From assembly GCF_036917555.1 (NCBI RefSeq), contig NZ_JBALDD010000092.1:22762-54761 (forward strand): a stretch of 32,000 nucleotides of DNA, read 5' to 3'. Of the stretch, positions 13,054 through 23,135 are shown one piece after another. Origin of the DNA: Nostoc sp. (GTDB lineage: Bacteria > Cyanobacteriota > Cyanobacteriia > Cyanobacteriales > Nostocaceae). The notes beneath the pieces were generated by a model that saw nothing but the letters and a program-made list of their open reading frames with translations, was not told the DNA's origin and made no database searches. The translations under genes were made by a program, and so were the position numbers. Every line of letters begins with the position of its first letter. Positions within the stretch are counted from its first letter, which is position 1.

Positions 13054-14445
13054 TCACAACTGATTTAGGATAGGCACCTTTTTGCTGTAATATTCAGTTT
13101 TGGTATAAATGCTGATAATACTATCACAAACTGCAAAAAAAGTACCTTCTTGCTCATCTTTAGAAAATTGCAAATTTGGGTATTTAGCAGCAGCTTCGTC
13201 AGCAGTCATGGCTTTGGCTTCCATTTGATCTGGCAATAGTCCAGTAGAACCAATATAAAATACTAAGGGAGATATTTTATCTTGGTAGATATTTTCTGCA
13301 TATTGTTCTAACTTTTTGTTTGCCACTGTTAAAGCTGTAACTATTTCTTCTTTGTTTATCTGCTTACCAGTTGGTTTATCCTGCAATAACTGCGCCAAAT
13401 TATCAGCGCCAACTTTCTTAAGAATACCTCCAACAATGCCATTTTGCTCAAGCCCAAGAAAATTATCAAAAATTGGTTTCATCAATTCGTCAACTTTCGT
13501 AATCTTGGTACGTGATGACAGTAATCTGTGCCTAACAGCAAGATTCTCATCAAATACCATCTCAAAACTCGGCTTCATGATAATTTCTCCAGTTTCTTTG
13601 TCATAAAGACGATACATTCGATTGAGAAACTTGTTAGCAGAAGGTAACTTACTCAAATTCAGAATATCTTGACTGCCGATATCGATTTTATAGCTCCTTT
13701 TTGAGCCAATAGTACCATTGACTAAAGCTTGGTTGATATCAGTGTATTCATTGATTGTAGGAAAATTGATGTAAATATTCTTAGATAGATAGTGCTTTTT
13801 AAACTCATCTAACTGCGTCTCGATAAATATATCTGACTCTTTTTTCAAGTGAGCACAAATAATACTAATCAGTACTTTAATTTCTGCTAGTTCATTAAAT
13901 AGTCCATGAATACTGCTGTAACTACTATTAGCAGCTATAAGTGGCAAGTTCTCTAACTGAATCGTATGTTCTGATTGGAAGTCAAATTTTTCTGCATCCA
14001 GTATGCCTTTTTCTTTGAGTAAGTCAAAGACTTTTTTGCTGCTAATTTTGACTTGTAATGAATTCACGTTGATTTTGCCGTCACTTACAATCGTATAATT
14101 ATTAAAGGTATTGAGGTCATTTACTAATAAACCTGCTACTTCAATGGTAAGAGTTTGGTCTTCAAATTGAGCAAGTTTAACTCTACGTTTGACAAGCATA
14201 TTGATAGTAGCAGTATTGTGGTTAAACTGAAACTCGCCCATACCAACATAGTCAGTGTCATCCATATATTCTGTTATCAACCAAGGTTGGAGCAGTTCTC
14301 CATTTTCGTTTCTAACACCTCTAATACGTTTAATACCTGTTCTTTGATAATCTTCTTGTAGGCGTTTGATGTTGACGATAAGATTGTTGCGATATTCTGC
14401 AAAAATCTGGATTAGTTCTACCAGAGAAATCTGATTCTTTGTCAT
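13054..14445 (-). CDS. hypothetical protein (orphan, 463 aa), no recognisable motif
   Basis: Long uninterrupted ORF. I prefer the ATG at 14445 because it is preceded by GGAAGGTGG (Shine-Dalgarno-like); the ORF track starts 5 codons earlier at a TTG. No P-loop, metal-binding or nuclease motif seen, and no signal peptide or TM segment. Confidence 0.7.
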   Translation of the reverse strand: MTKNQISLVELIQIFAEYRNNLIVNIKRLQEDYQRTGIKRIRGVRNENGELLQPWLITEYMDDTDYVGMGEFQFNHNTATINMLVKRRVKLAQFEDQTLTIEVAGLLVNDLNTFNNYTIVSDGKINVNSLQVKISSKKVFDLLKEKGILDAEKFDFQSEHTIQLENLPLIAANSSYSSIHGLFNELAEIKVLISIICAHLKKESDIFIETQLDEFKKHYLSKNIYINFPTINEYTDINQALVNGTIGSKRSYKIDIGSQDILNLSKLPSANKFLNRMYRLYDKETGEIIMKPSFEMVFDENLAVRHRLLSSRTKITKVDELMKPIFDNFLGLEQNGIVGGILKKVGADNLAQLLQDKPTGKQINKEEIVTALTVANKKLEQYAENIYQDKISPLVFYIGSTGLLPDQMEAKAMTADEAAAKYPNLQFSKDEQEGTFFAVCDSIISIYTKTEYYSKKVPILNQL

Positions 14446-14580
14446 ATTGCCACCTTCCAAATAAAGGTTAAGAATCTTTTATAGCAACGGTTATTGAAGT
14501 TTATTGATATTCCAAAATAAGCTGTTATAACCGTACAAAATTTAATGGTAAGTTAGTAGGCAATTGAGGGTTTAAGTTTA

Positions 14581-14621
14581 AACGCAGAAAAGCGCAGAGT
14601 ATAACGCAGAGGAGCGCAAAG
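14581..14621. repeat. 19-bp direct repeat (aacgcagaaaagcgcagag / aacgcagaggagcgcaaag)
   Basis: Two copies with a 22-bp period in the spacer between the orphan gene and the MprF-like gene. Confidence 0.5.
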
Positions 14622-14835
14622 TTTGTTTCAGTCTATTCACTAGGAACTTAGGCAACGCGAAGAACAGCCTTGCCTAATTTTATAGTACAATTGTATCATA
14701 TAAAGGAAAAGTTGTGTAGGCGTAGCCGCTGGTAGATATTGCTGTGCAATGAGGTGGTATGGTGTTGCTGAATAACGTCAGAATATATGCTTTCTAAGCT
14801 TTGCACCCTTGAGTGACTTTGTTTTGAGTCTACAT

Positions 14836-16506
14836 TTAGGCTCCGGGTTTTAAATAATCGAAGAGGCGATCGCCTGAATCTGCGCGAATCAATGCTACAA
14901 CTACATCTGGTAAGGTGGCTAAACTGGGGTAAACTAAATAACGCGGTTCCCAACGAGGGCGGAACTTGTCTTTGTAGGCGTGCAGTCCCTTGAAGTTGTA
15001 AAAGCGATTCAAATGGTCGTAAAGATAGTGCAATACTTTTTCCAAACGGCGCGATTCAGGATTTTCTCCAACTCCAGCAAGTGCAGAAAGGCCGAAATTA
15101 AAGCTGTCGTAACCACACTCTTTAAAATGCTGGAGCAGGGAAATAAATAGAAAGTCCATTGTGCCATTTTCAAGAGATGAGCGATGTCGCATCATGTCAA
15201 TAGTCGCTTCGTTAAGTTGGTACTCCCGGATAATGTTGGCAAAGGCGCTAATCTGACCTTCAGGATTATGCACCACAGCAATCTCGCACTCTCGCAGGTA
15301 AGCTTCGTCAAACCAACCTAAAGAAAATTGTTTTTCTGAACCTTGTACCATTTTCAACCATTCATCACTTACAGGTTTGAGGCGATGCAATAAATCATTG
15401 GCGATGGGTGGTTGGTAAAAGTCGATTTGGTATCCTAGTTTAGTTAAACGACTGATTGATGGTCTAAAGTTTTTACCAGCTTTACCTTGTAACGTAAAAC
15501 TTTTTAAGTCAACGATCGCTTCCTCTCCAATCTTGAGTACCTTAAACCCCAATGACTTGTAAAGCTCAACATCATCGGGCATAGTTTGGTAAAAGCCAGG
15601 ATACCAGTCGTTGCGCTGACAAAACTGCCAGAAAGCAATAATTGTCTCTTTGCGGTCTTCAGTGGGGCCGATGGGATCTCCTAATGCGATCGCACCCCGT
15701 CCTTTGGGAACATAAGCAATTACACTATTACCCGAAGGACTGAAATAATAACTTTTATCATTTAAGAGTGTAAGCGCTGCTAAAGAAGAACATCCATATT
15801 GCTCGACAATTTCTTTAGCTCTTTGTCGCTCATTTGTAGTTGCTAGATTCTGCCAAAACACAGGTTGCAACAGCATTACTATTGCATAAGTAATAGTACC
15901 TGCGGCAATAATATAGATAGAATTAGCAAAAAATTCTCCAAATCGACTCTTTGGTTGCAGTCCCCAATTATCCTCAGTGAAGAACATCGCCAAAGTCTGA
16001 ACTATCGCTTCTCGCCAATTAAAGTTCTCTGAAAATTTGCCGTCTAACAAGTAAAATCCAATGGTTCCGTATGCGAGAGTAAATAATAAAGCGCCTATCA
16101 GCACTCTAACTCCCCGTGCGATGGAAGGACGGTCTGATTGCGCCGTAAAAAAATGGCGCATCAAGATTAATTGCACCAATAAAACTCCAGAGAGTAGACT
16201 TTCTTCATAGTCCAGTCCCTTCAGCAAGTGGCTGCAAATAGAAATTATTAGTAAAGCAATGGTTAGTAACCAGGCTATTCTTTTCCGGCGTAATAAATTA
16301 GTAGCAAGTGTTAATAAAATAAACCCAGTTAATGCTGCAAATATATGACCACTGGCACGAATTTCAAATGGTAAAAGTTCCTTTAACCAGTGAGTCCGCC
16401 CGTACAGGTTAGGTGTCACTGCTGATAATAAATTTACTACTCCGACTAAACCTGTTAGGAAAGCTGCACTCCAAAGTCCAATCTGAGTTTTTAAATTATT
16501 TGTCAT
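14836..16506 (-). CDS. aminoacyl-phosphatidylglycerol synthase, MprF C-terminal half (6 TM plus DUF2156/LPG-synthase domain)
   Basis: From memory, strong colinear match to the MprF synthase domain. Shared motifs: GEEAIVDLKSFTLQGKAGKNFR, VSDEWL, EKQFSLGWFDEAYL, DMMRHR...GTMDFLFISLL, FNFGLSALAGVG, YNFKGLHAYKDKFRPRWEPRYLVY. Confidence 0.9.
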   Translation of the reverse strand: MTNNLKTQIGLWSAAFLTGLVGVVNLLSAVTPNLYGRTHWLKELLPFEIRASGHIFAALTGFILLTLATNLLRRKRIAWLLTIALLIISICSHLLKGLDYEESLLSGVLLVQLILMRHFFTAQSDRPSIARGVRVLIGALLFTLAYGTIGFYLLDGKFSENFNWREAIVQTLAMFFTEDNWGLQPKSRFGEFFANSIYIIAAGTITYAIVMLLQPVFWQNLATTNERQRAKEIVEQYGCSSLAALTLLNDKSYYFSPSGNSVIAYVPKGRGAIALGDPIGPTEDRKETIIAFWQFCQRNDWYPGFYQTMPDDVELYKSLGFKVLKIGEEAIVDLKSFTLQGKAGKNFRPSISRLTKLGYQIDFYQPPIANDLLHRLKPVSDEWLKMVQGSEKQFSLGWFDEAYLRECEIAVVHNPEGQISAFANIIREYQLNEATIDMMRHRSSLENGTMDFLFISLLQHFKECGYDSFNFGLSALAGVGENPESRRLEKVLHYLYDHLNRFYNFKGLHAYKDKFRPRWEPRYLVYPSLATLPDVVVALIRADSGDRLFDYLKPGA

Positions 16507-16517
16507 TTTTCATTAGT

Positions 16518-16584
16518 AGTTAGGAGTGAGGAGTTAGAAGTTAGGAGTTTTCAATTTTTAACTCTTAACTCCTAACTCCTAACT
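16518..16584. repeat. STRR-type heptamer inverted-repeat hairpin
   Basis: gttagga-type heptamers x4 (16518-16549), loop ttcaattttt, then aactcct-type heptamers x3-4 (16560-16584). It covers the stop codon of the upstream esterase gene and ends 12 nt before the mprF-like ATG. Confidence 0.8.
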
Positions 16585-17473
16585 TTTTAAACTGTTCTCC
16601 GACATAGGAGAGTGAATCTTTAAGATGTTTATGAAAGTAGTTCCAGCCTACATTAGCACCAGATAAACCATGACCTCCAGGAAATGCATAAAATACGTGA
16701 GCAATGCCTAATTTATTTAAGGTTTCGTTGAAGGCTTTGGTAGAAGCTAGCAAATTAGTATCGTTCAAACCAGCATCTAGGTAAACACGCAATCGCTTCC
16801 TATCTTGAACTGTTAGCTGTTGCACAATTTGTTGAGGACTATTTTGTGAATCGCTGTCATCAGTAAAGTAACCGCTATGGCTAAACAAAATCTGAAAGTT
16901 GTTGAGATAGCGTAATCCGATATTAAATGCACCCCATCCTCCAGAAGATATACCTCCTAGCGCCCAAAATTGGGGTTCTTCCAAAGTGCGATAGCGCGAC
17001 TTGACAACTTGTACTAATTCTGAACCAATCAAAGTTCCCACTTTGCCATTCGGCCCATCAAAGTAATCGGGGTCGTATAAAGGACTAGAACCGCGATTAT
17101 CATTACCATCAGGTGTAATCACAATCGATGGCGGTAATTTTCCACTTTGATAAAGTTCATGCAATACGTTTAAGAGTGCGTATTTATCAGCATAAGCACG
17201 AGCATCATCATGACCACCGTGTAGTAAAAATATCAGAGGGTAGCGCTTTTGGGGATTTTTGCTATAAGTAGGGGGCAAAATCACGCCGTAGTTACGGACT
17301 GCACCCATCACTTGGGAGTTGAAGGTTGCTAATTGAAACTTTAGCCCAGTATTTGCCGCTTTTTTGGGTGGGTCTAGTTGTGGCGCACCTAAGATGAATA
17401 CATAATAATAACCAGCAGTAGTAAGAAGTGCGATCGCTCCTACCAAGCTAATTAACAATTTATAAATCTTCAT
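16565..17473 (-). CDS. membrane-anchored alpha/beta-hydrolase, esterase family (esterase D / putative-esterase type)
   Basis: N-terminal anchor helix (LLISLVGAIALLTTAGYYYVFIL), oxyanion-type LLHGGH, and nucleophile elbow GGISSGGWGA. Paralogue of the next gene. Confidence 0.82.
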   Translation of the reverse strand: MKIYKLLISLVGAIALLTTAGYYYVFILGAPQLDPPKKAANTGLKFQLATFNSQVMGAVRNYGVILPPTYSKNPQKRYPLIFLLHGGHDDARAYADKYALLNVLHELYQSGKLPPSIVITPDGNDNRGSSPLYDPDYFDGPNGKVGTLIGSELVQVVKSRYRTLEEPQFWALGGISSGGWGAFNIGLRYLNNFQILFSHSGYFTDDSDSQNSPQQIVQQLTVQDRKRLRVYLDAGLNDTNLLASTKAFNETLNKLGIAHVFYAFPGGHGLSGANVGWNYFHKHLKDSLSYVGEQFKKLGVRS

Positions 17474-17599
17474 ATTCTTTTAGTGTAAAAAAAATCACCT
17501 TTACTAGGACTTACTAGAATTAATTTACTGAAAAATGGCAGTATTTTTTTTACATTAATGTTTAAATATCAACGGCTTGGCAGAATAGTATTATTTCTA

Positions 17600-18586
17600 C
17601 TAGGGATTAATTTTTTTGAGCGTTTTTTTATGATTAATACTTAAATTTTTCTCAGTCATATTTGCTGTTTCTGAAGCTCGAAATTGTTCGCCGACAAATG
17701 TCAATGAGTTTGCTAAATGTTTCCGCCAATATTGCCAAGTGTGACTGCCAGGAAACTGACGAAATGAATTATAAATTTTCAGTTTATTTAGGACTTTACT
17801 AAATCGCTCTGCTTCGCCAATTTCATCAATATCTGATGTACCTGAATCTAAGTAAATCTTCAACCTTTTTTGAGCTTGTGTGGGAATGGTTTTAATATAA
17901 GATATTGGGCTATTTGCTGCGCCACTTTTATCTTTAAAATAGCCACTATGACTAAATAAAATTGAGAAATGCTCGACATTGTGTAATCCGACATTGATTG
18001 CTCCCCAACCACCAGAAGATAGACCACCTATCGCCCAAAAATCTGGATTAGTTAATGTACGATAACGGCTTTGCACAACTTTTACTAACTCATCGCCTAC
18101 GGCTGTAGAGACTTTCCCGTTAGGGCCATCGATATATTCCGGATCTCGGTAGGGACTAGAGCCACGCTTGTCGTTACCATCTGGTGTAATGATGATGCTG
18201 GGTGGCAACTTACCTGTAGTATAAAGTTGTTCTACAGTCTTGAGAGCTTCTCCCTTACTCTGAATAAACCAACTACTGGGATCACCATGTCCACCGTGGA
18301 GGAGAAAGATTACAGGATACCTTTGTTTTAAGTTTTGCTCATAGCCAGGAGGTAAAGAAACGCCATAAGTGCGACTTGCACCCATTACTTTACTATCGTA
18401 GGTTTCAATTTTATAGGTTAGGAGAGTCGCTGAGTTGCTAGTATTGCGCTGGGTTGGAAGAACGGAAGGCGTTGTTTGTAAATCCTGCTGTTGCGATGGT
18501 TTTGCGACGACAGTTTGGGAGAAATTACAGCCAACTAAGGTTAATACTGAAAATAACAAGAAAATTTTAGATTGTTTGTAGTTCAT
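17600..18586 (-). CDS. lipoprotein alpha/beta-hydrolase, esterase family (paralogue of 16565..17473)
   Basis: Lipobox LTLVGC. Shares YPVIFLLHGGH, KLPPSIIITPDGNDKRGSSP, GPNGKV, SRYRTL, GGLSSGGWGA and ILFSHSGYF with its neighbour. Confidence 0.82.
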   Translation of the reverse strand: MNYKQSKIFLLFSVLTLVGCNFSQTVVAKPSQQQDLQTTPSVLPTQRNTSNSATLLTYKIETYDSKVMGASRTYGVSLPPGYEQNLKQRYPVIFLLHGGHGDPSSWFIQSKGEALKTVEQLYTTGKLPPSIIITPDGNDKRGSSPYRDPEYIDGPNGKVSTAVGDELVKVVQSRYRTLTNPDFWAIGGLSSGGWGAINVGLHNVEHFSILFSHSGYFKDKSGAANSPISYIKTIPTQAQKRLKIYLDSGTSDIDEIGEAERFSKVLNKLKIYNSFRQFPGSHTWQYWRKHLANSLTFVGEQFRASETANMTEKNLSINHKKTLKKINP

Positions 18587-18738
18587 CTTTGAAGGGCATT
18601 GGTTAAACAGGGCATTATTGCGTAGTTGATGCTTGCCTTCAAAAGCTTATGCAAATGATATGTCAACGCTGTGTCAACAGGATGGAAACTTTACGACTGG
18701 TTGTAAATTAAAAGTCAAGAGTTAAGATAAGTTTCTTC

Positions 18739-19683
18739 ATGATGCTTAAAAAGCTGCGACTCAATTTTAGTTCTTTGTTTGGCTTGTTGCTGCTGGTGCT
18801 TTCCCTGTGGGCGATCGCTCACGAATTGCATGAGTATAATTATCGTGATATCCTCAATTCTCTAGCTGCTATTCCCAAAAGTCGCTTAAGTTGGGCAATT
18901 TGGCTGACAGCTTTGGGCTATCTAGTGATGATTGGGTACGATATCTTAGGTTTTAACTACATTAATCGTTCTTTAAATTGGAATAAGATAGCTTTCACTA
19001 ACTTTATTAGCTCTGCATTTAGTAATACCATCGGTTTTGCCTTACTGACTGGCAGTGCTATCCGTTATCGATTTTATGCTAATTGGGGAGTTTCAGCAAT
19101 TGCGATCGCTCAAGTAATTGCTTTCGCCAATTTTACTTTTTGGTTGGGGATGTTTGCCGTTGCAGGTTTATTATTCCTCATCAACCCCCTGAAGATTCCC
19201 ACTCAATTACATTTACCTTTTGCTACTGTGCGTCCCATCGGTGTGATTTTTCTGCTATTAGTTGTGGTTTATTTACTAGGAAGTATTTTTATTAAACAAC
19301 CATTAATAATTCGTGAACATGAATTTCGATTTCCTTCTATTAAAATATCTCTGGCTCAAATAGCAATTTCTAGTTTTGACTGGATTCTGGCGGCGGCAGT
19401 TCTTTATGCTTTACTTCCTAGCAATATATCTTTGTCATATCTAGACTTTTTGGGAATTTATTTATTAGCGATGTTTGCAGGTGTGGTTAGTAATGTCCCC
19501 GGTGGTTTGGGAGTATTTGAAACTATAATTTTGCTGATTCTTTCCTCAAAAATTTCGGCGGCGGCAGTTTTGGGTTCAATGTTAGCTTATCGGGGAGTCT
19601 ATTATTTCTTACCTTTGCTAGTAGCAGCAGGCTTACTAGGACTTTATGAAATTAGATTTAGATCCGAAAACTTCCGAAAATGA
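18739..19683 (+). CDS. MprF N-terminal (flippase-like) transmembrane domain protein (LPG_synthase_TM / UPF0104 type)
   Basis: About 8 hydrophobic helices. The motif FISSAFSNTIGFALLTGSAIRYRFY matches the conserved N-terminal half of MprF/LpiA proteins (from memory). Divergently transcribed from the esterase / mprF-synthase genes. Confidence 0.78.
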   Translation: MMLKKLRLNFSSLFGLLLLVLSLWAIAHELHEYNYRDILNSLAAIPKSRLSWAIWLTALGYLVMIGYDILGFNYINRSLNWNKIAFTNFISSAFSNTIGFALLTGSAIRYRFYANWGVSAIAIAQVIAFANFTFWLGMFAVAGLLFLINPLKIPTQLHLPFATVRPIGVIFLLLVVVYLLGSIFIKQPLIIREHEFRFPSIKISLAQIAISSFDWILAAAVLYALLPSNISLSYLDFLGIYLLAMFAGVVSNVPGGLGVFETIILLILSSKISAAAVLGSMLAYRGVYYFLPLLVAAGLLGLYEIRFRSENFRK

Positions 19684-19726
19684 ATCAACTATCAAGTCCA
19701 TTTTGAGGATGAACATTAAATAAATC

Positions 19727-19749
19727 CCCAACTTCTTCAAGAAGTTGGT
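19727..19749 (+). terminator. decayed ccccaacttctt/aagaagttgg hairpin downstream of the flippase-like gene
   Basis: ccaacttctt c aagaagttgg. There is no clear T-run, so terminator function is uncertain. Same family as 13019-13043. Confidence 0.4.
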
Positions 19750-19943
19750 TATCTAAGAATTTCAAGTAAGTAAAATCGATAAATAGTGCTAATTTTAAAG
19801 GCGATATCTTTACAAATAGCGGTGAAAATTCATAATTTTTGCTGAGGCGATTGCTAAACAAAGTTTCATGATTTTTTCTGTTATTTTTTAGAAACTGTTA
19901 AACTGAGAACTATAAGTAAAACCTCGTATACTTTGGGAAACTT

Positions 19944-20321
19944 ATGGAGCCAGTATCATTGACAGCTGCTGCGATCGCAACTTTGGTAATCACCAAAGCA
20001 TTTGAAAAAACTGGTGAAATCATTAGCGAAAAGGCTTGGGATGAAGGCGAAAAATTGTTAGTTCTGCTCAAACGCAAGGAACCTAGCACGGCGAAGGCTA
20101 TCGAACAGGCTAAAACACAACCTTTAGATTACAGTCAAGCTTATCTTGTTGGACAGCAAGTAGAGGAAGCGGCGAAGAAAGATCCTGAAATTGCTCAAGC
20201 TGTGGAAGCTGTAGCCAATGAGGCACAACCTCAACTGACGAACACTATTATTGAAAATTGGCAGGGGATAAATATTAAAGGTGGAACTAATACCATTTCT
20301 GGTAACACCTTCAACTTCTGA
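19944..20321 (+). CDS. 125-aa helical N-terminal module of the downstream NLR-like gene, ended by an in-frame TGA
   Basis: ATG at 19944. Hydrophobic first helix MEPVSLTAAAIATLVITKAF, a K/E/A-rich helical body, and a G/N/T-rich tail NWQGINIKGGTNTISGNTFNF. Same reading frame as 20373..23135, with only the TGA at 20319-20321 between them. Confidence 0.6.
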   Translation: MEPVSLTAAAIATLVITKAFEKTGEIISEKAWDEGEKLLVLLKRKEPSTAKAIEQAKTQPLDYSQAYLVGQQVEEAAKKDPEIAQAVEAVANEAQPQLTNTIIENWQGINIKGGTNTISGNTFNF

Positions 20322-20372: not shown

Positions 20373-23135
20373 TTGCCCCTGAGTGGGGTGGTGGAATTTG
20401 TCGGACGTGAGGAAGAATTGAAAAATCTTCACCAACTTTTGCAGGATAATAAACAAGTTGCCATTGCTGCGATCGCTGGGATGGGTGGAGTTGGTAAAAC
20501 AGAACTTGCCCTGCAATATGCCATCCAGCGCCGCGAAACATATAACGGTGGGCTTTGCTGGTTGCTGGCAAAAACTGGAGATGTGGGCATTCAAGTTGTG
20601 CAGTTTGCGAGAACGCAGCTGGATTTAAAGCCGCCAGAAGATTTTGATTTACTCGCCCAAGTGCAATATTGTTGGCGGCGTTGGCGTGAAGGTGATGTGC
20701 TGCTAGTTTTGGATGATGTAAGTGACTACGAGCAAGTCAAACCTTACTTACAGTCGCTACCTTCTCGGTTTAAAGTGTTGATAACTACGCGCCAGAACTT
20801 GGGACGCATTGCACAGTTATCTTTGGATGTGCTGCAACCAGAGGCGGCGCTGGAGTTATTAAAGTATTTACTCAAAGAAACACCGGGGCGAATTGAAAAA
20901 GAATTAGCTTTAGCAAATCAGTTGTGTGAATGGCTGGGATATTTACCTTTGGGCGTGGAATTAGTTGGGCGATATTTGGCGCGGAAACAGGATTTATCTT
21001 TAGCAGAAATGTTGCGGCGGTTGGAGAACAAGCGATTAGAACAAGCTGCTCTTAATGAACCAGAAGCCGACATGACAGCACAACGAGGTGTGTTAGCAGC
21101 CTTTGAGTTGAGTTGGCAAGAATTAGAGGATGACGAGAAGCAATTAGGTTGTTTATTGAGTTTATTTGCCGCCGCACCAATACCCTGGAATTTGGTGGAA
21201 GAGTGTGTAATGGAGAACTTGGGTAAAAATAAAAATAAAATCCCACGTCTACTGGCCTTATTAGACATATCCTCTGGTGGAAGCTTTACAGTGTCTAGGC
21301 TGCAACTTAGTTTCTGGAGATGTCTATTGTTAAGCCTCAACTGGATATGTAACATACGATTTAAGCTTGAGAGCAAGTCTGTAGAGAAAAATGTAGAAAA
21401 TTTAGAGAAAATCAGAGACGATAGCTTAGTAAATCTACATTTACTCCAGCGCAAAGGTCAGGGAATCTATCAACTGCATCCACTGTTGCGGGAGTTTTTC
21501 CAATACAAGTTTAGAGGGTTAGATGATGCAGAGAAATTTATGCGATCGCTTTGTAAGGAAATGGTAGCAATCGCCAAAGGGATTCCTAAAACACCCACCC
21601 TTGAGCAAATCACCGCCGTCTCCATCACCATACCTCATATAGCCGAAGTAGCGAATAATCTAATTCAATGGGTCAGCGATGAAAATTTATTTTGGGTATT
21701 TACTGGTAACGCTAATTTTTACGATGGTCAGGGATTATATGATCAGGCAGAACTCTGGTATGAGCAGTGTATAGAAGTCACAAAAAAACGGTTGGGTGAG
21801 CAACATCCAGATTTCGCTGCTAGTCTCAACAACCTAGCAGGACTCTACAAATCCCAAGGCAGATACAGCAAAGCCGAACCTATTTACATCCAAGCTTTAG
21901 CACTCAACCGCAAGCGGTTGGGAAAAAAACATCCATCTGTCGCCAGCAGCCTCAACAACCTAGCAGGACTCTACAAATCCCAAGGCAGATACAGCGAAGC
22001 TGAATCCCTTTTAATCCAAGCTTTAACACTCAGGCGCAAGCGGCTGGGAAAAAAACATCCAGATTTCGCTACTACTCTCAACAACCTAGCAGGACTCTAC
22101 GAATCCCAAGGCAGATACAGCGAAGCCGAACCTCTTTATGTCCAAGCTTTAGCACTCAGGCGTAAACTGCTGGGAGAAGAACATCCAGATGTTGCTACTA
22201 GTCTCAACAACCTAGCAACACTCTACAACTCCCAAGGTAGATACAGCGAAGCCGAACCTCTTTATGTCCAAGCTTTAGCACTCAGGCGCAAGTTGCTGGG
22301 AGAAGAACATCCAGATGTCGCTACTAGTCTCAACAACCTAGCAACACTCTACAACTCCCAAGGCAAATACAGAGAAGCCGAACCTTTATCCATGCAAGCT
22401 TTAGCACTCAGGCGCAAGCTGCTGGGAGAAGAACATCCAGATGTCGCTGCTAGTCTCAACAACCTAGCAGCACTCTATGAATCCCAAGGCAGATACAGCG
22501 AAGCCGAACCTCTTTACGTCCAAGCTTTAGCACTCAGGCGCAAGCTGCTGGGAGAAGAACATCCAGATGTCGCTGCTAGTCTTAATAACCTAGCAGCACT
22601 TTATGAATCCCAAGGCAGATACAGCGAAGCCGAACCTCTTTATGTCCAAGCTTTAGCACTCAGGCGCAAACTGCTGGGAGAAGAACATCCAGATGTCGCT
22701 GCTAGTCTTAATAACCTAGCAGCACTCTATGAATCCCAAGGCAGATACAGCGAAGCCGAACCTCTTTACGTCCAAGCTTTAGCACTCTGCCGCAAACTGC
22801 TAGGAGAAGAACATCCATCTGTCGCTGCTAGCCTCAACAACCTAGCAGGACTCTATAACTTCCAAGGAAGATGCAGCGAAGCCGAAACCCTTTACAGCCA
22901 AGCCTTGGCACTCAAGCGCAAGTTGCTGGGAGAAGAACATCCATCTGTCGCTGTTAGCCTCTACAACCTAGCAGGACTCTATAAATCCCAAGGCAGATAC
23001 AGCGAAGCCGAACCCCTTTACATCCAGGCTTTGAATATTTGTGAGCGACGGTTAGGGATGGATCATCCCAAGACTGTTACTTCTCGTGATAATTTAGCAT
23101 ATATTCGCGATCGCCTCTCCCAAAATCCAGAATAA
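20373..23135 (+). CDS. NB-ARC (STAND NTPase) plus TPR-repeat protein, bacterial NLR-like; start codon uncertain
   Basis: Walker A GMGGVGKTELA, Walker B LLVLDDV, sensor KVLITTR and GLPL-type GYLPLGVEL. Then ten 42-aa TPR units (LNNLAGLYKSQGRYSEAEPLY type). The track start is a TTG with no visible SD. The open frame continues upstream to the TGA at 20319. Confidence 0.9.
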   Translation: MPLSGVVEFVGREEELKNLHQLLQDNKQVAIAAIAGMGGVGKTELALQYAIQRRETYNGGLCWLLAKTGDVGIQVVQFARTQLDLKPPEDFDLLAQVQYCWRRWREGDVLLVLDDVSDYEQVKPYLQSLPSRFKVLITTRQNLGRIAQLSLDVLQPEAALELLKYLLKETPGRIEKELALANQLCEWLGYLPLGVELVGRYLARKQDLSLAEMLRRLENKRLEQAALNEPEADMTAQRGVLAAFELSWQELEDDEKQLGCLLSLFAAAPIPWNLVEECVMENLGKNKNKIPRLLALLDISSGGSFTVSRLQLSFWRCLLLSLNWICNIRFKLESKSVEKNVENLEKIRDDSLVNLHLLQRKGQGIYQLHPLLREFFQYKFRGLDDAEKFMRSLCKEMVAIAKGIPKTPTLEQITAVSITIPHIAEVANNLIQWVSDENLFWVFTGNANFYDGQGLYDQAELWYEQCIEVTKKRLGEQHPDFAASLNNLAGLYKSQGRYSKAEPIYIQALALNRKRLGKKHPSVASSLNNLAGLYKSQGRYSEAESLLIQALTLRRKRLGKKHPDFATTLNNLAGLYESQGRYSEAEPLYVQALALRRKLLGEEHPDVATSLNNLATLYNSQGRYSEAEPLYVQALALRRKLLGEEHPDVATSLNNLATLYNSQGKYREAEPLSMQALALRRKLLGEEHPDVAASLNNLAALYESQGRYSEAEPLYVQALALRRKLLGEEHPDVAASLNNLAALYESQGRYSEAEPLYVQALALRRKLLGEEHPDVAASLNNLAALYESQGRYSEAEPLYVQALALCRKLLGEEHPSVAASLNNLAGLYNFQGRCSEAETLYSQALALKRKLLGEEHPSVAVSLYNLAGLYKSQGRYSEAEPLYIQALNICERRLGMDHPKTVTSRDNLAYIRDRLSQNPE
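21798..23057 (+). repeat. ten tandem 126-bp (42-codon) TPR units
   Basis: The period was verified by hand. The units start at 21798 plus n x 126. The units at 22428, 22554 and 22680 are nearly identical at DNA level. Confidence 0.95.

Follow-up and report, generated by a model that had tools for sequence, protein, structure and literature searches.

We suggest that a four-gene locus in a 32,000-nucleotide stretch of Nostoc DNA (contig C92 of a 7.69-Mb assembly; the whole stretch is called the window hereafter) encodes a tRNA-dependent lipid-aminoacylation module with extracytoplasmic esterases, which most probably hydrolyse the aminoacyl ester, and we give this reading a probability of roughly 55%. 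The locus comprises a stand-alone aminoacyl-lipid synthase of the MprF type (syn, positions 14836-16506, minus strand, 556 amino acids [aa]), two paralogous serine esterases of family PF00756 (the membrane-anchored estA, 16565-17473, minus strand, 302 aa, directly upstream of syn, and the lipoprotein-type estB, 17600-18586, minus strand, 328 aa) and a stand-alone flippase-like protein of the LPG_synthase_TM (PplT) family resembling the N-terminal part of MprF (flip, 18739-19683, plus strand, 314 aa). All four open reading frames (ORFs) were found where a preliminary description of the locus had placed them. The module is a real, conserved cyanobacterial variant of a known pairing, that of an aminoacyl-phosphatidylglycerol synthase (aaPGS) with a 'putative esterase', combined with a lineage-wide split of MprF.

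Across 401 genomes sampled evenly over the cyanobacterial phylum, the synthase was present in 44 and the esterase family in 32, and 31 genomes had both. In 30 of these 31 the synthase has an esterase gene as its immediate same-strand neighbour, the gap ranging from -3 to 336 bp and the order being syn-flip-est in one genome; in the sole non-adjacent genome the two genes are on different contigs. In the window, 58 bp separate the estA stop from the start of syn on the same strand, and the two genes are presumably co-transcribed; syn is the only true DUF2156 gene of its genome. Among 80 Nostocales loci retrieved with estB as the query, about 68 share the arrangement flip(-) estB(+) estA(+) syn(+) (oriented with estB on the plus strand), and the neighbourhood is thus conserved beyond the one strain in which it was first described. 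Because the four-gene arrangement recurs so often, and on the phyletic and adjacency data from the 401 genomes, we reject a chance neighbourhood.

The two esterases differ in how they relate to the synthase. In a tree of 18 esterases, the ten sampled synthase-linked ones, estA included, form a 100/100 clade; estB falls among the other eight, which elsewhere in cyanobacteria occupy loci unlinked to a synthase. These unlinked estB-type paralogues were seen only in genomes with a DUF2156 gene. In broken Nostoc clusters (G378 and G152), estB remains with flip and estA remains with syn. The tree and the linkage pattern therefore point to estA-syn as an old pair and to estB as a later neighbour. We conclude that the conserved functional unit, old and tightly kept, is estA-syn rather than synthase-flippase; estB is an old exported paralogue that moved next to the pair in Nostocaceae. 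A recent tandem duplication within Nostoc was also considered as the origin of estA and estB and was rejected, since estB groups with the old unlinked exported paralogues and estA with the synthase-linked clade.

Two Nostocaceae genomes carry remnants of the locus. In G164 (C1:3771903-3772942), what is left of the esterase corresponds to estB residues 1-92 (in an 89-aa open frame), that of the synthase is a 211-aa C-terminal piece, and that of the flippase corresponds to flip residues 2-76. In G098 (C1:3584018-3584476) a stop codon interrupts the flippase fragment. Since only fragments are left, the module seems to be undergoing decay in both genomes and to be dispensable in some lineages.

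syn is anchored by six transmembrane (TM) segments, seen as hydrophobic stretches within residues 9-210, ahead of a soluble cytoplasmic DUF2156/LPG_synthase_C domain that matches PF09924 over residues 232-526 (Pfam, E 3.7e-86). On the NCBIfam model of bifunctional MprF (NF033480), syn covers model positions 316-840 of 841 (509.5 bits) and flip covers positions 4-303 (233.1 bits); therefore the two genes tile MprF with no overlap, and neither alone reaches the equivalog cut-off of 600 bits. Protein Data Bank (PDB) matches to syn include MprF 9goe (E 2.1e-67) and more generally MprF and LysPGS/AlaPGS domains (E 2e-67 to 5e-54), with the alignment to MprF TM regions beginning at residues 349/353 of 7f47/6lvf. 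The modules are thus those of canonical MprF (S. aureus MprF, R. tropici LpiA, P. aeruginosa MprF), namely an 8-TM flippase and a 6-TM/DUF2156 synthase. However, the N-terminal 8-TM flippase domain that belongs in the same polypeptide in MprF is here the separate protein flip, encoded on the opposite strand, as had been noted at the outset; in cyanobacteria where the two are linked, the order is syn and then flip. Separated halves of MprF have been reported to function (Ernst 2009, as cited in 10.1101/2022.03.11.483950), a point that the preliminary description had also made.

The split turned out to be general and no local peculiarity. Orthologues of syn, 50-97% identical, occur in 37 cyanobacterial genomes, and an N-terminal flippase domain was found in none of these 37 full-length synthases. 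Stand-alone synthases, roughly 555-605 aa long, account for 36 of the 37 full-length hits (the longer open frame of the G270 synthase is an upstream read-through overlapping the esterase gene), which therefore makes the split of MprF into two genes the normal cyanobacterial state, a lineage-wide norm and not a feature of one strain. The exception, in G264 (L088 5328-8048), is a 906-aa fusion in which the 6-TM and DUF2156 synthase comes first (PF09924 at 258-552) and a flippase-type domain after it (PF03706 at 601-884), an order permuted relative to the canonical flippase-synthase one.

Two variations on the synthase-hydrolase theme were seen in single genomes or pairs of genomes. G316, which is without a Nostoc-type membrane-bound synthase, encodes a TM-less DUF2156 protein of 354 aa (PF09924 E 2.7e-63; L103 5389-7505), whose gene overlaps by 4 bp with the next one, that of an anchored esterase belonging to the estB-type clade. 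In G172 and G095, an alpha/beta hydrolase of PF00561/PF12697 with a CHSYG elbow and no signal lies directly upstream of the synthase operon (L125 5493-6302 and L085 4944-5765, respectively; the copies are 68% identical), replacing estA in G172 and being additional to it in G095. This hydrolase, for which the window's genome has no orthologue, is possibly a further hydrolase partner, located in the cytoplasm.

Both esterases match PF00756 (71.1 bits for estA and 88.4 for estB, cut-off 22), the sole Pfam family detected in them at E<=0.01, and they are 54% identical to each other over 257 residues (E 2e-103). The GxSxG elbow takes the form G-(I/L)-S-S-G in each. Residues S176, D233, D238 and H268 of estA do not vary among 35 Nostocales sequences, nor do the family motifs LLHGG, PDG.D.RG and F.H.GY..D.S...NSP, and these columns are likewise constant across 18 diverse sequences spanning cyanobacteria; the motif positions in estB are S190, D245, D252 and H282. 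An AlphaFold2 model of estA (pLDDT 82.9) has a helix at residues 2-27 joined through a disordered linker to an alpha/beta-hydrolase core, with CE1 feruloyl/acetyl-xylan esterases and esterase D as the best Foldseek matches (5vol, E 4e-21; TM-scores 0.70-0.83). A PDB sequence search with estB returned the CE1 enzyme 7b5v (E 4e-24), the alignment setting GLSSGG against GLSMGG. No VirJ-type domain (PF06057) was found in estA or estB and no AcvB/VirJ structure appeared among the top 50 fold matches, in agreement with the initial statement that these esterases are of another type.

The tethers of the two enzymes are distinct. A hydropathy scan gives estA one hydrophobic N-terminal helix, and the motif at the end of this anchor, GY(Y/W)YVF..GAPQLD, is kept in synthase-linked orthologues of distant cyanobacteria. 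estB bears a lipobox, L-V-G-C, at residues 17-20 (MNYKQSKIFLLFSVLTLVGC, with Cys20), and this cysteine is retained in 79 of the 80 Nostocales orthologues, 68 fitting the strict pattern [LVI][ASTVI][GAS]C and 11 having Phe at -2; lipidation itself is predicted. Relatives of estB elsewhere bear lipoboxes or ordinary signal peptides. Given the anchor of estA and the lipobox of estB, both catalytic domains are predicted to lie outside the cytoplasm, and the invariant Ser/Asp/His residues, the CE1/esterase-D fold and the conserved export signals lead us to predict that both are active, exported enzymes. The original picture of two tandem, paralogous, exported esterases is upheld in these respects.

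A profile search for the estA/estB family against 1.84 billion representatives delineated a tight clade of five full-length 50% clusters (338-498 bits), outside which scores fall to 226 bits or less and belong to generic multi-domain CE1 proteins; a search for estA homologues among proteins returned only Nostocales. The next matches include proteins of ~310 aa that share related motifs and are anchored at the N-terminus, some of them assigned to Candidatus Woesebacteria, Chloroflexi and Solirubrobacteraceae. On four of eight non-cyanobacterial contigs inspected, Candidatus Woesebacteria included, the anchored PF00756 homologue overlaps or abuts a PF09924 gene, which in three cases is a synthase-only gene of ~540-563 aa with start/stop overlap and in one a canonical 910-aa MprF. 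On two further contigs the Chloroflexi-type copies adjoin dehydrogenases and lack a DUF2156 gene in their vicinity, and the last two contigs are too short to show the neighbours of the esterase. The pairing of synthase and PF00756 esterase is therefore cross-phylum.

This is similar to what is known from other bacteria, where aaPGS genes commonly share operons with aminoacyl-phosphatidylglycerol (aa-PG) hydrolases, and where the 'putative esterase' type, represented by PesT of Corynebacterium, is one of three recognised aaPGS-associated hydrolase types (PMC6103681). In the AlaDAGS-PesT system of C. glutamicum, as in Nostoc, an aaPGS/MprF homologue is encoded beside a 'putative esterase', and estA-syn has exactly this adjacency. 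The Nostoc locus differs in coming from Cyanobacteria and not Actinobacteria, in having two paralogous esterases with distinct tethers and in having a separate flippase-type gene; the lipid products in Corynebacterium are diacylglycerol (DAG) and phosphatidylglycerol (PG) forms. PesT is taken as a PF00756 protein from its description as a 'putative esterase', and estA is likened to it by gene context and description. Since the review already lists PesT, we consider that estA and estB most likely belong to this third type of aaPGS partner. The proposal that the esterases are a non-homologous replacement therefore stands as far as their family differs from that of VirJ/AcvB, but the idea is not new.

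The mechanism that we propose is as follows. syn, held in the membrane by its TM segments, would use its cytoplasmic DUF2156 domain to move an amino acid from aminoacyl-tRNA to a membrane lipid; we infer both the amino acid and the lipid, the latter being most likely PG. PG is the only major cyanobacterial phospholipid and is needed for photosynthetic membranes. The aminoacyl lipid would then reach the outer leaflet, in Nostoc presumably assisted by the separately encoded flip. On the periplasmic (or lumenal) side, depending on whether the module sits in the plasma membrane or, as may also be supposed, in the thylakoid, estA with its membrane helix and estB as a lipoprotein would act on the aminoacyl ester. 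Most probably they would hydrolyse it and so control how much of the modified lipid is present at steady state, as do the serine hydrolases VirJ/AcvB/PA0919 and AhyD of E. faecium, which are likewise encoded beside a synthase. Hydrolases of the VirJ type strip aa-PG of its amino acid at the outer surface of the cytoplasmic membrane; estA and estB, in contrast to VirJ/AcvB/PA0919, belong to PF00756 with its CE1/esterase D fold, and the comparison with AhyD is by description only.

Several observations weigh against this reading, and they concern flip, the reaction of the esterases and their substrate. At a general level, our literature search returned no lipid, enzymatic or expression data for any cyanobacterial member, nor any study of aminoacyl lipids in cyanobacteria, in keeping with the earlier remark that aminoacylated PG has been little studied there.

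As for flip, it matches PF03706 over residues 14-295 of 314 (51.3 bits, cut-off 33.4), has about eight hydrophobic segments and contains the PGGLGVFE motif. It could be a general PplT-type phospholipid translocase that lies next to the Nostoc cluster by happenstance and is not the functional missing half of MprF, a possibility that we hold to be real although the less likely one. Stand-alone flippase-domain (PplT) proteins and synthase-only homologues are documented, MprF proteins are common in cyanobacterial genomes, and the stand-alone PplT proteins have been argued to be general translocases (preprint 10.1101/2022.03.11.483950). Like stand-alone PplT/YbhN, flip is PF03706 as a separate protein, and its orthologues (matches at E<=1e-15) are widespread without a synthase, 33 of the 53 genomes that have one being synthase-free; conversely, such an orthologue is present in 20 and missing from 24 of the 44 synthase-bearing genomes. 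Synthase-linked and synthase-free copies intermingle in the tree, and in the broken Nostoc clusters the gene stays with estB, not with syn. flip may therefore act on lipids in general. Unlike PplT/YbhN, however, it is specifically MprF-N-like, scoring 233 bits on the MprF equivalog model (NF033480) versus 23 bits on the generic flippase-like model. Besides the fusion in G264, a flip-type gene lies directly downstream of syn, co-directional, in G095, G228 and G194; the fusion and these adjacencies are good evidence that the synthase and this flippase-type protein can function together. The two are within <=3.2 kb of each other in 12 genomes, that is, in 12 of the 20 with both and in 12 of the 44 with a synthase. 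Genomes with syn and estA and no flip orthologue have only distant PF03706 proteins, located elsewhere, and the window's own genome has one further PF03706 paralogue, very distant from flip. We conclude that flip is a loose partner of the synthase, so that the synthase/flippase/hydrolase module proposed in the preliminary description stands as regards estA-syn but only loosely as regards flip.

A constant partner beside flip was also sought in synthase-free genomes and rejected, the neighbours being heterogeneous except for a recurring AI-2E transporter. In four cyanobacterial genomes a transporter of this family (PF01594) directly adjoins either the MprF-N-type flippase gene or the gene of the stand-alone synthase, and an unrelated metagenome contig has one directly upstream of a fused MprF of 910 aa (L104 3886-4929; L089 7143-8264; L112 3793-4929; L115 3923-4993; L128 8708-9823). 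The Nostoc window has none, and we know of no tie between AI-2E transporters and lipid aminoacylation.

With regard to the esterase reaction, it is conceivable, though we think it unlikely, that estA and estB are transesterases. Outside the cytoplasm, they would take the aminoacyl group off the primary lipid and pass it to a second lipid or to an envelope polymer, so that syn would only form the donor. PesT, the only studied esterase of its type, weighs here against hydrolysis: according to Smith et al. 2015, as summarised in PMC6103681 and PMC10580965, it is co-operonic with AlaDAGS, and both are required for the formation of Ala-PG in C. glutamicum. It is thus not a demonstrated simple hydrolase, and the roles offered for it in the review are those of an Ala-DAG/PG transferase or a hydrolase (PMC6103681). 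The PF00756 family as such also contains acyl-transferring enzymes, and the PS1 mycoloyltransferase of C. glutamicum (6sx4) was a weak PDB match in our esterase sequence search. Mycolyltransferases are members of PF00756. The differing tethers of the paralogues, inner-membrane anchor versus lipoprotein, could suit different acceptors, and estA is always co-oriented with syn and tightly spaced from it, as would fit a biosynthetic partner. However, there is no acceptor that we can point to, CE1 esterases, which are hydrolytic, give the best matches in both sequence and fold, and the VirJ/AcvB/AhyD hydrolases are co-operonic with their synthases too (PMC6103681); co-expression therefore does not discriminate a hydrolase from a transesterase. 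An extended form of this proposal, in which the PF00756 partners are extracytoplasmic aminoacyl-transferases and the synthase is the cytoplasmic donor stage of a D-alanylation-like envelope decoration in cyanobacteria, candidate phyla radiation (CPR) bacteria and actinobacteria, with estA and estB serving different acceptors or membranes, strikes us as less likely still.

An improbable alternative to ester hydrolysis on aminoacyl lipids is that estA and estB act on some other substrate, be it the fatty-acyl chains of membrane lipids, in a lipase/lysolipid role, or O-acyl groups of the cell wall or exopolysaccharide, with syn merely a fellow envelope-remodelling gene. Their closest characterised relatives are feruloyl, acetyl-xylan and tributyrin esterases, and the closest solved ones are carbohydrate (feruloyl/acetyl-xylan) esterases and not lipid enzymes. 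Moreover, 13 genomes have the synthase without an esterase of this PF00756 family, and the two Chloroflexi-type homologues adjoin dehydrogenases. Against this, the cyanobacterial family is nearly confined to genomes with a DUF2156 gene (31/32), where it almost always adjoins that gene, and pairing with start/stop overlap recurs in unrelated phyla. The invariant PDG.D.RG and F.H.GY..D.S...NSP motifs, along with the drop from >=338 to <=226 bits, further separate the family from generic CE1 proteins.

A sizeable minority of cyanobacteria thus carry a stand-alone MprF-type synthase, which in most of them is firmly coupled to a PF00756 esterase of its own that faces outwards. Among the aaPGS-associated hydrolase classes, only that of PesT has a biochemical role still under debate, and the Nostoc locus bears on the question of hydrolysis versus transfer; if transfer were correct, an MprF-type synthase would be the first stage of an envelope-decoration pathway spanning several phyla. 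The natural variants (synthase without flippase, flippase without synthase and the fusion in reversed order) could reveal how tightly synthase and flippase need to be coupled.

The spacers of the locus hold two further features. Between estA and syn, an inverted repeat of (GGAGTTA)n heptamers at 16516-16586 (no strand assigned) overlaps the final codons of estA and is predicted to fold as an RNA hairpin of -31 kcal/mol (z -5.4). All seven heptamer-pair matches in the window fall in this interval and none elsewhere, and the genome as a whole has 227 matches compared with 0 in a reversed control. The hairpin was considered as a locus-specific regulatory element and rejected, since with 227 matches it is a copy of a dispersed, STRR-like genome-wide repeat; the estA-syn spacer itself ranges from ~20 to 550 bp across Nostoc strains. 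The 152-bp divergent spacer between estB and flip (18587-18738, no strand) is presumed to be a bidirectional promoter region, a function that we only infer because a consensus scan of 14300-20000 gave counts of promoters and terminators no higher than in shuffles.

Downstream of syn, an ORF at 13054-14460 (minus strand, 468 aa) without a Pfam or NCBIfam match is retained in synteny in most related Nostocales loci (68-91% identity) and has no evident tie to the module. On the other side, ~0.7 kb from flip, lies an ORF at 20373-23135 (plus strand, 920 aa), unrelated to the synthase, esterases and flippase. Its N-terminus resembles an NTPase domain by eye, and the protein contains long runs of near-identical 42-residue TPR units of the form …LNNLA.LY.SQGRYSEAEPLY.QALAL.RKLLGEEHPDVA….

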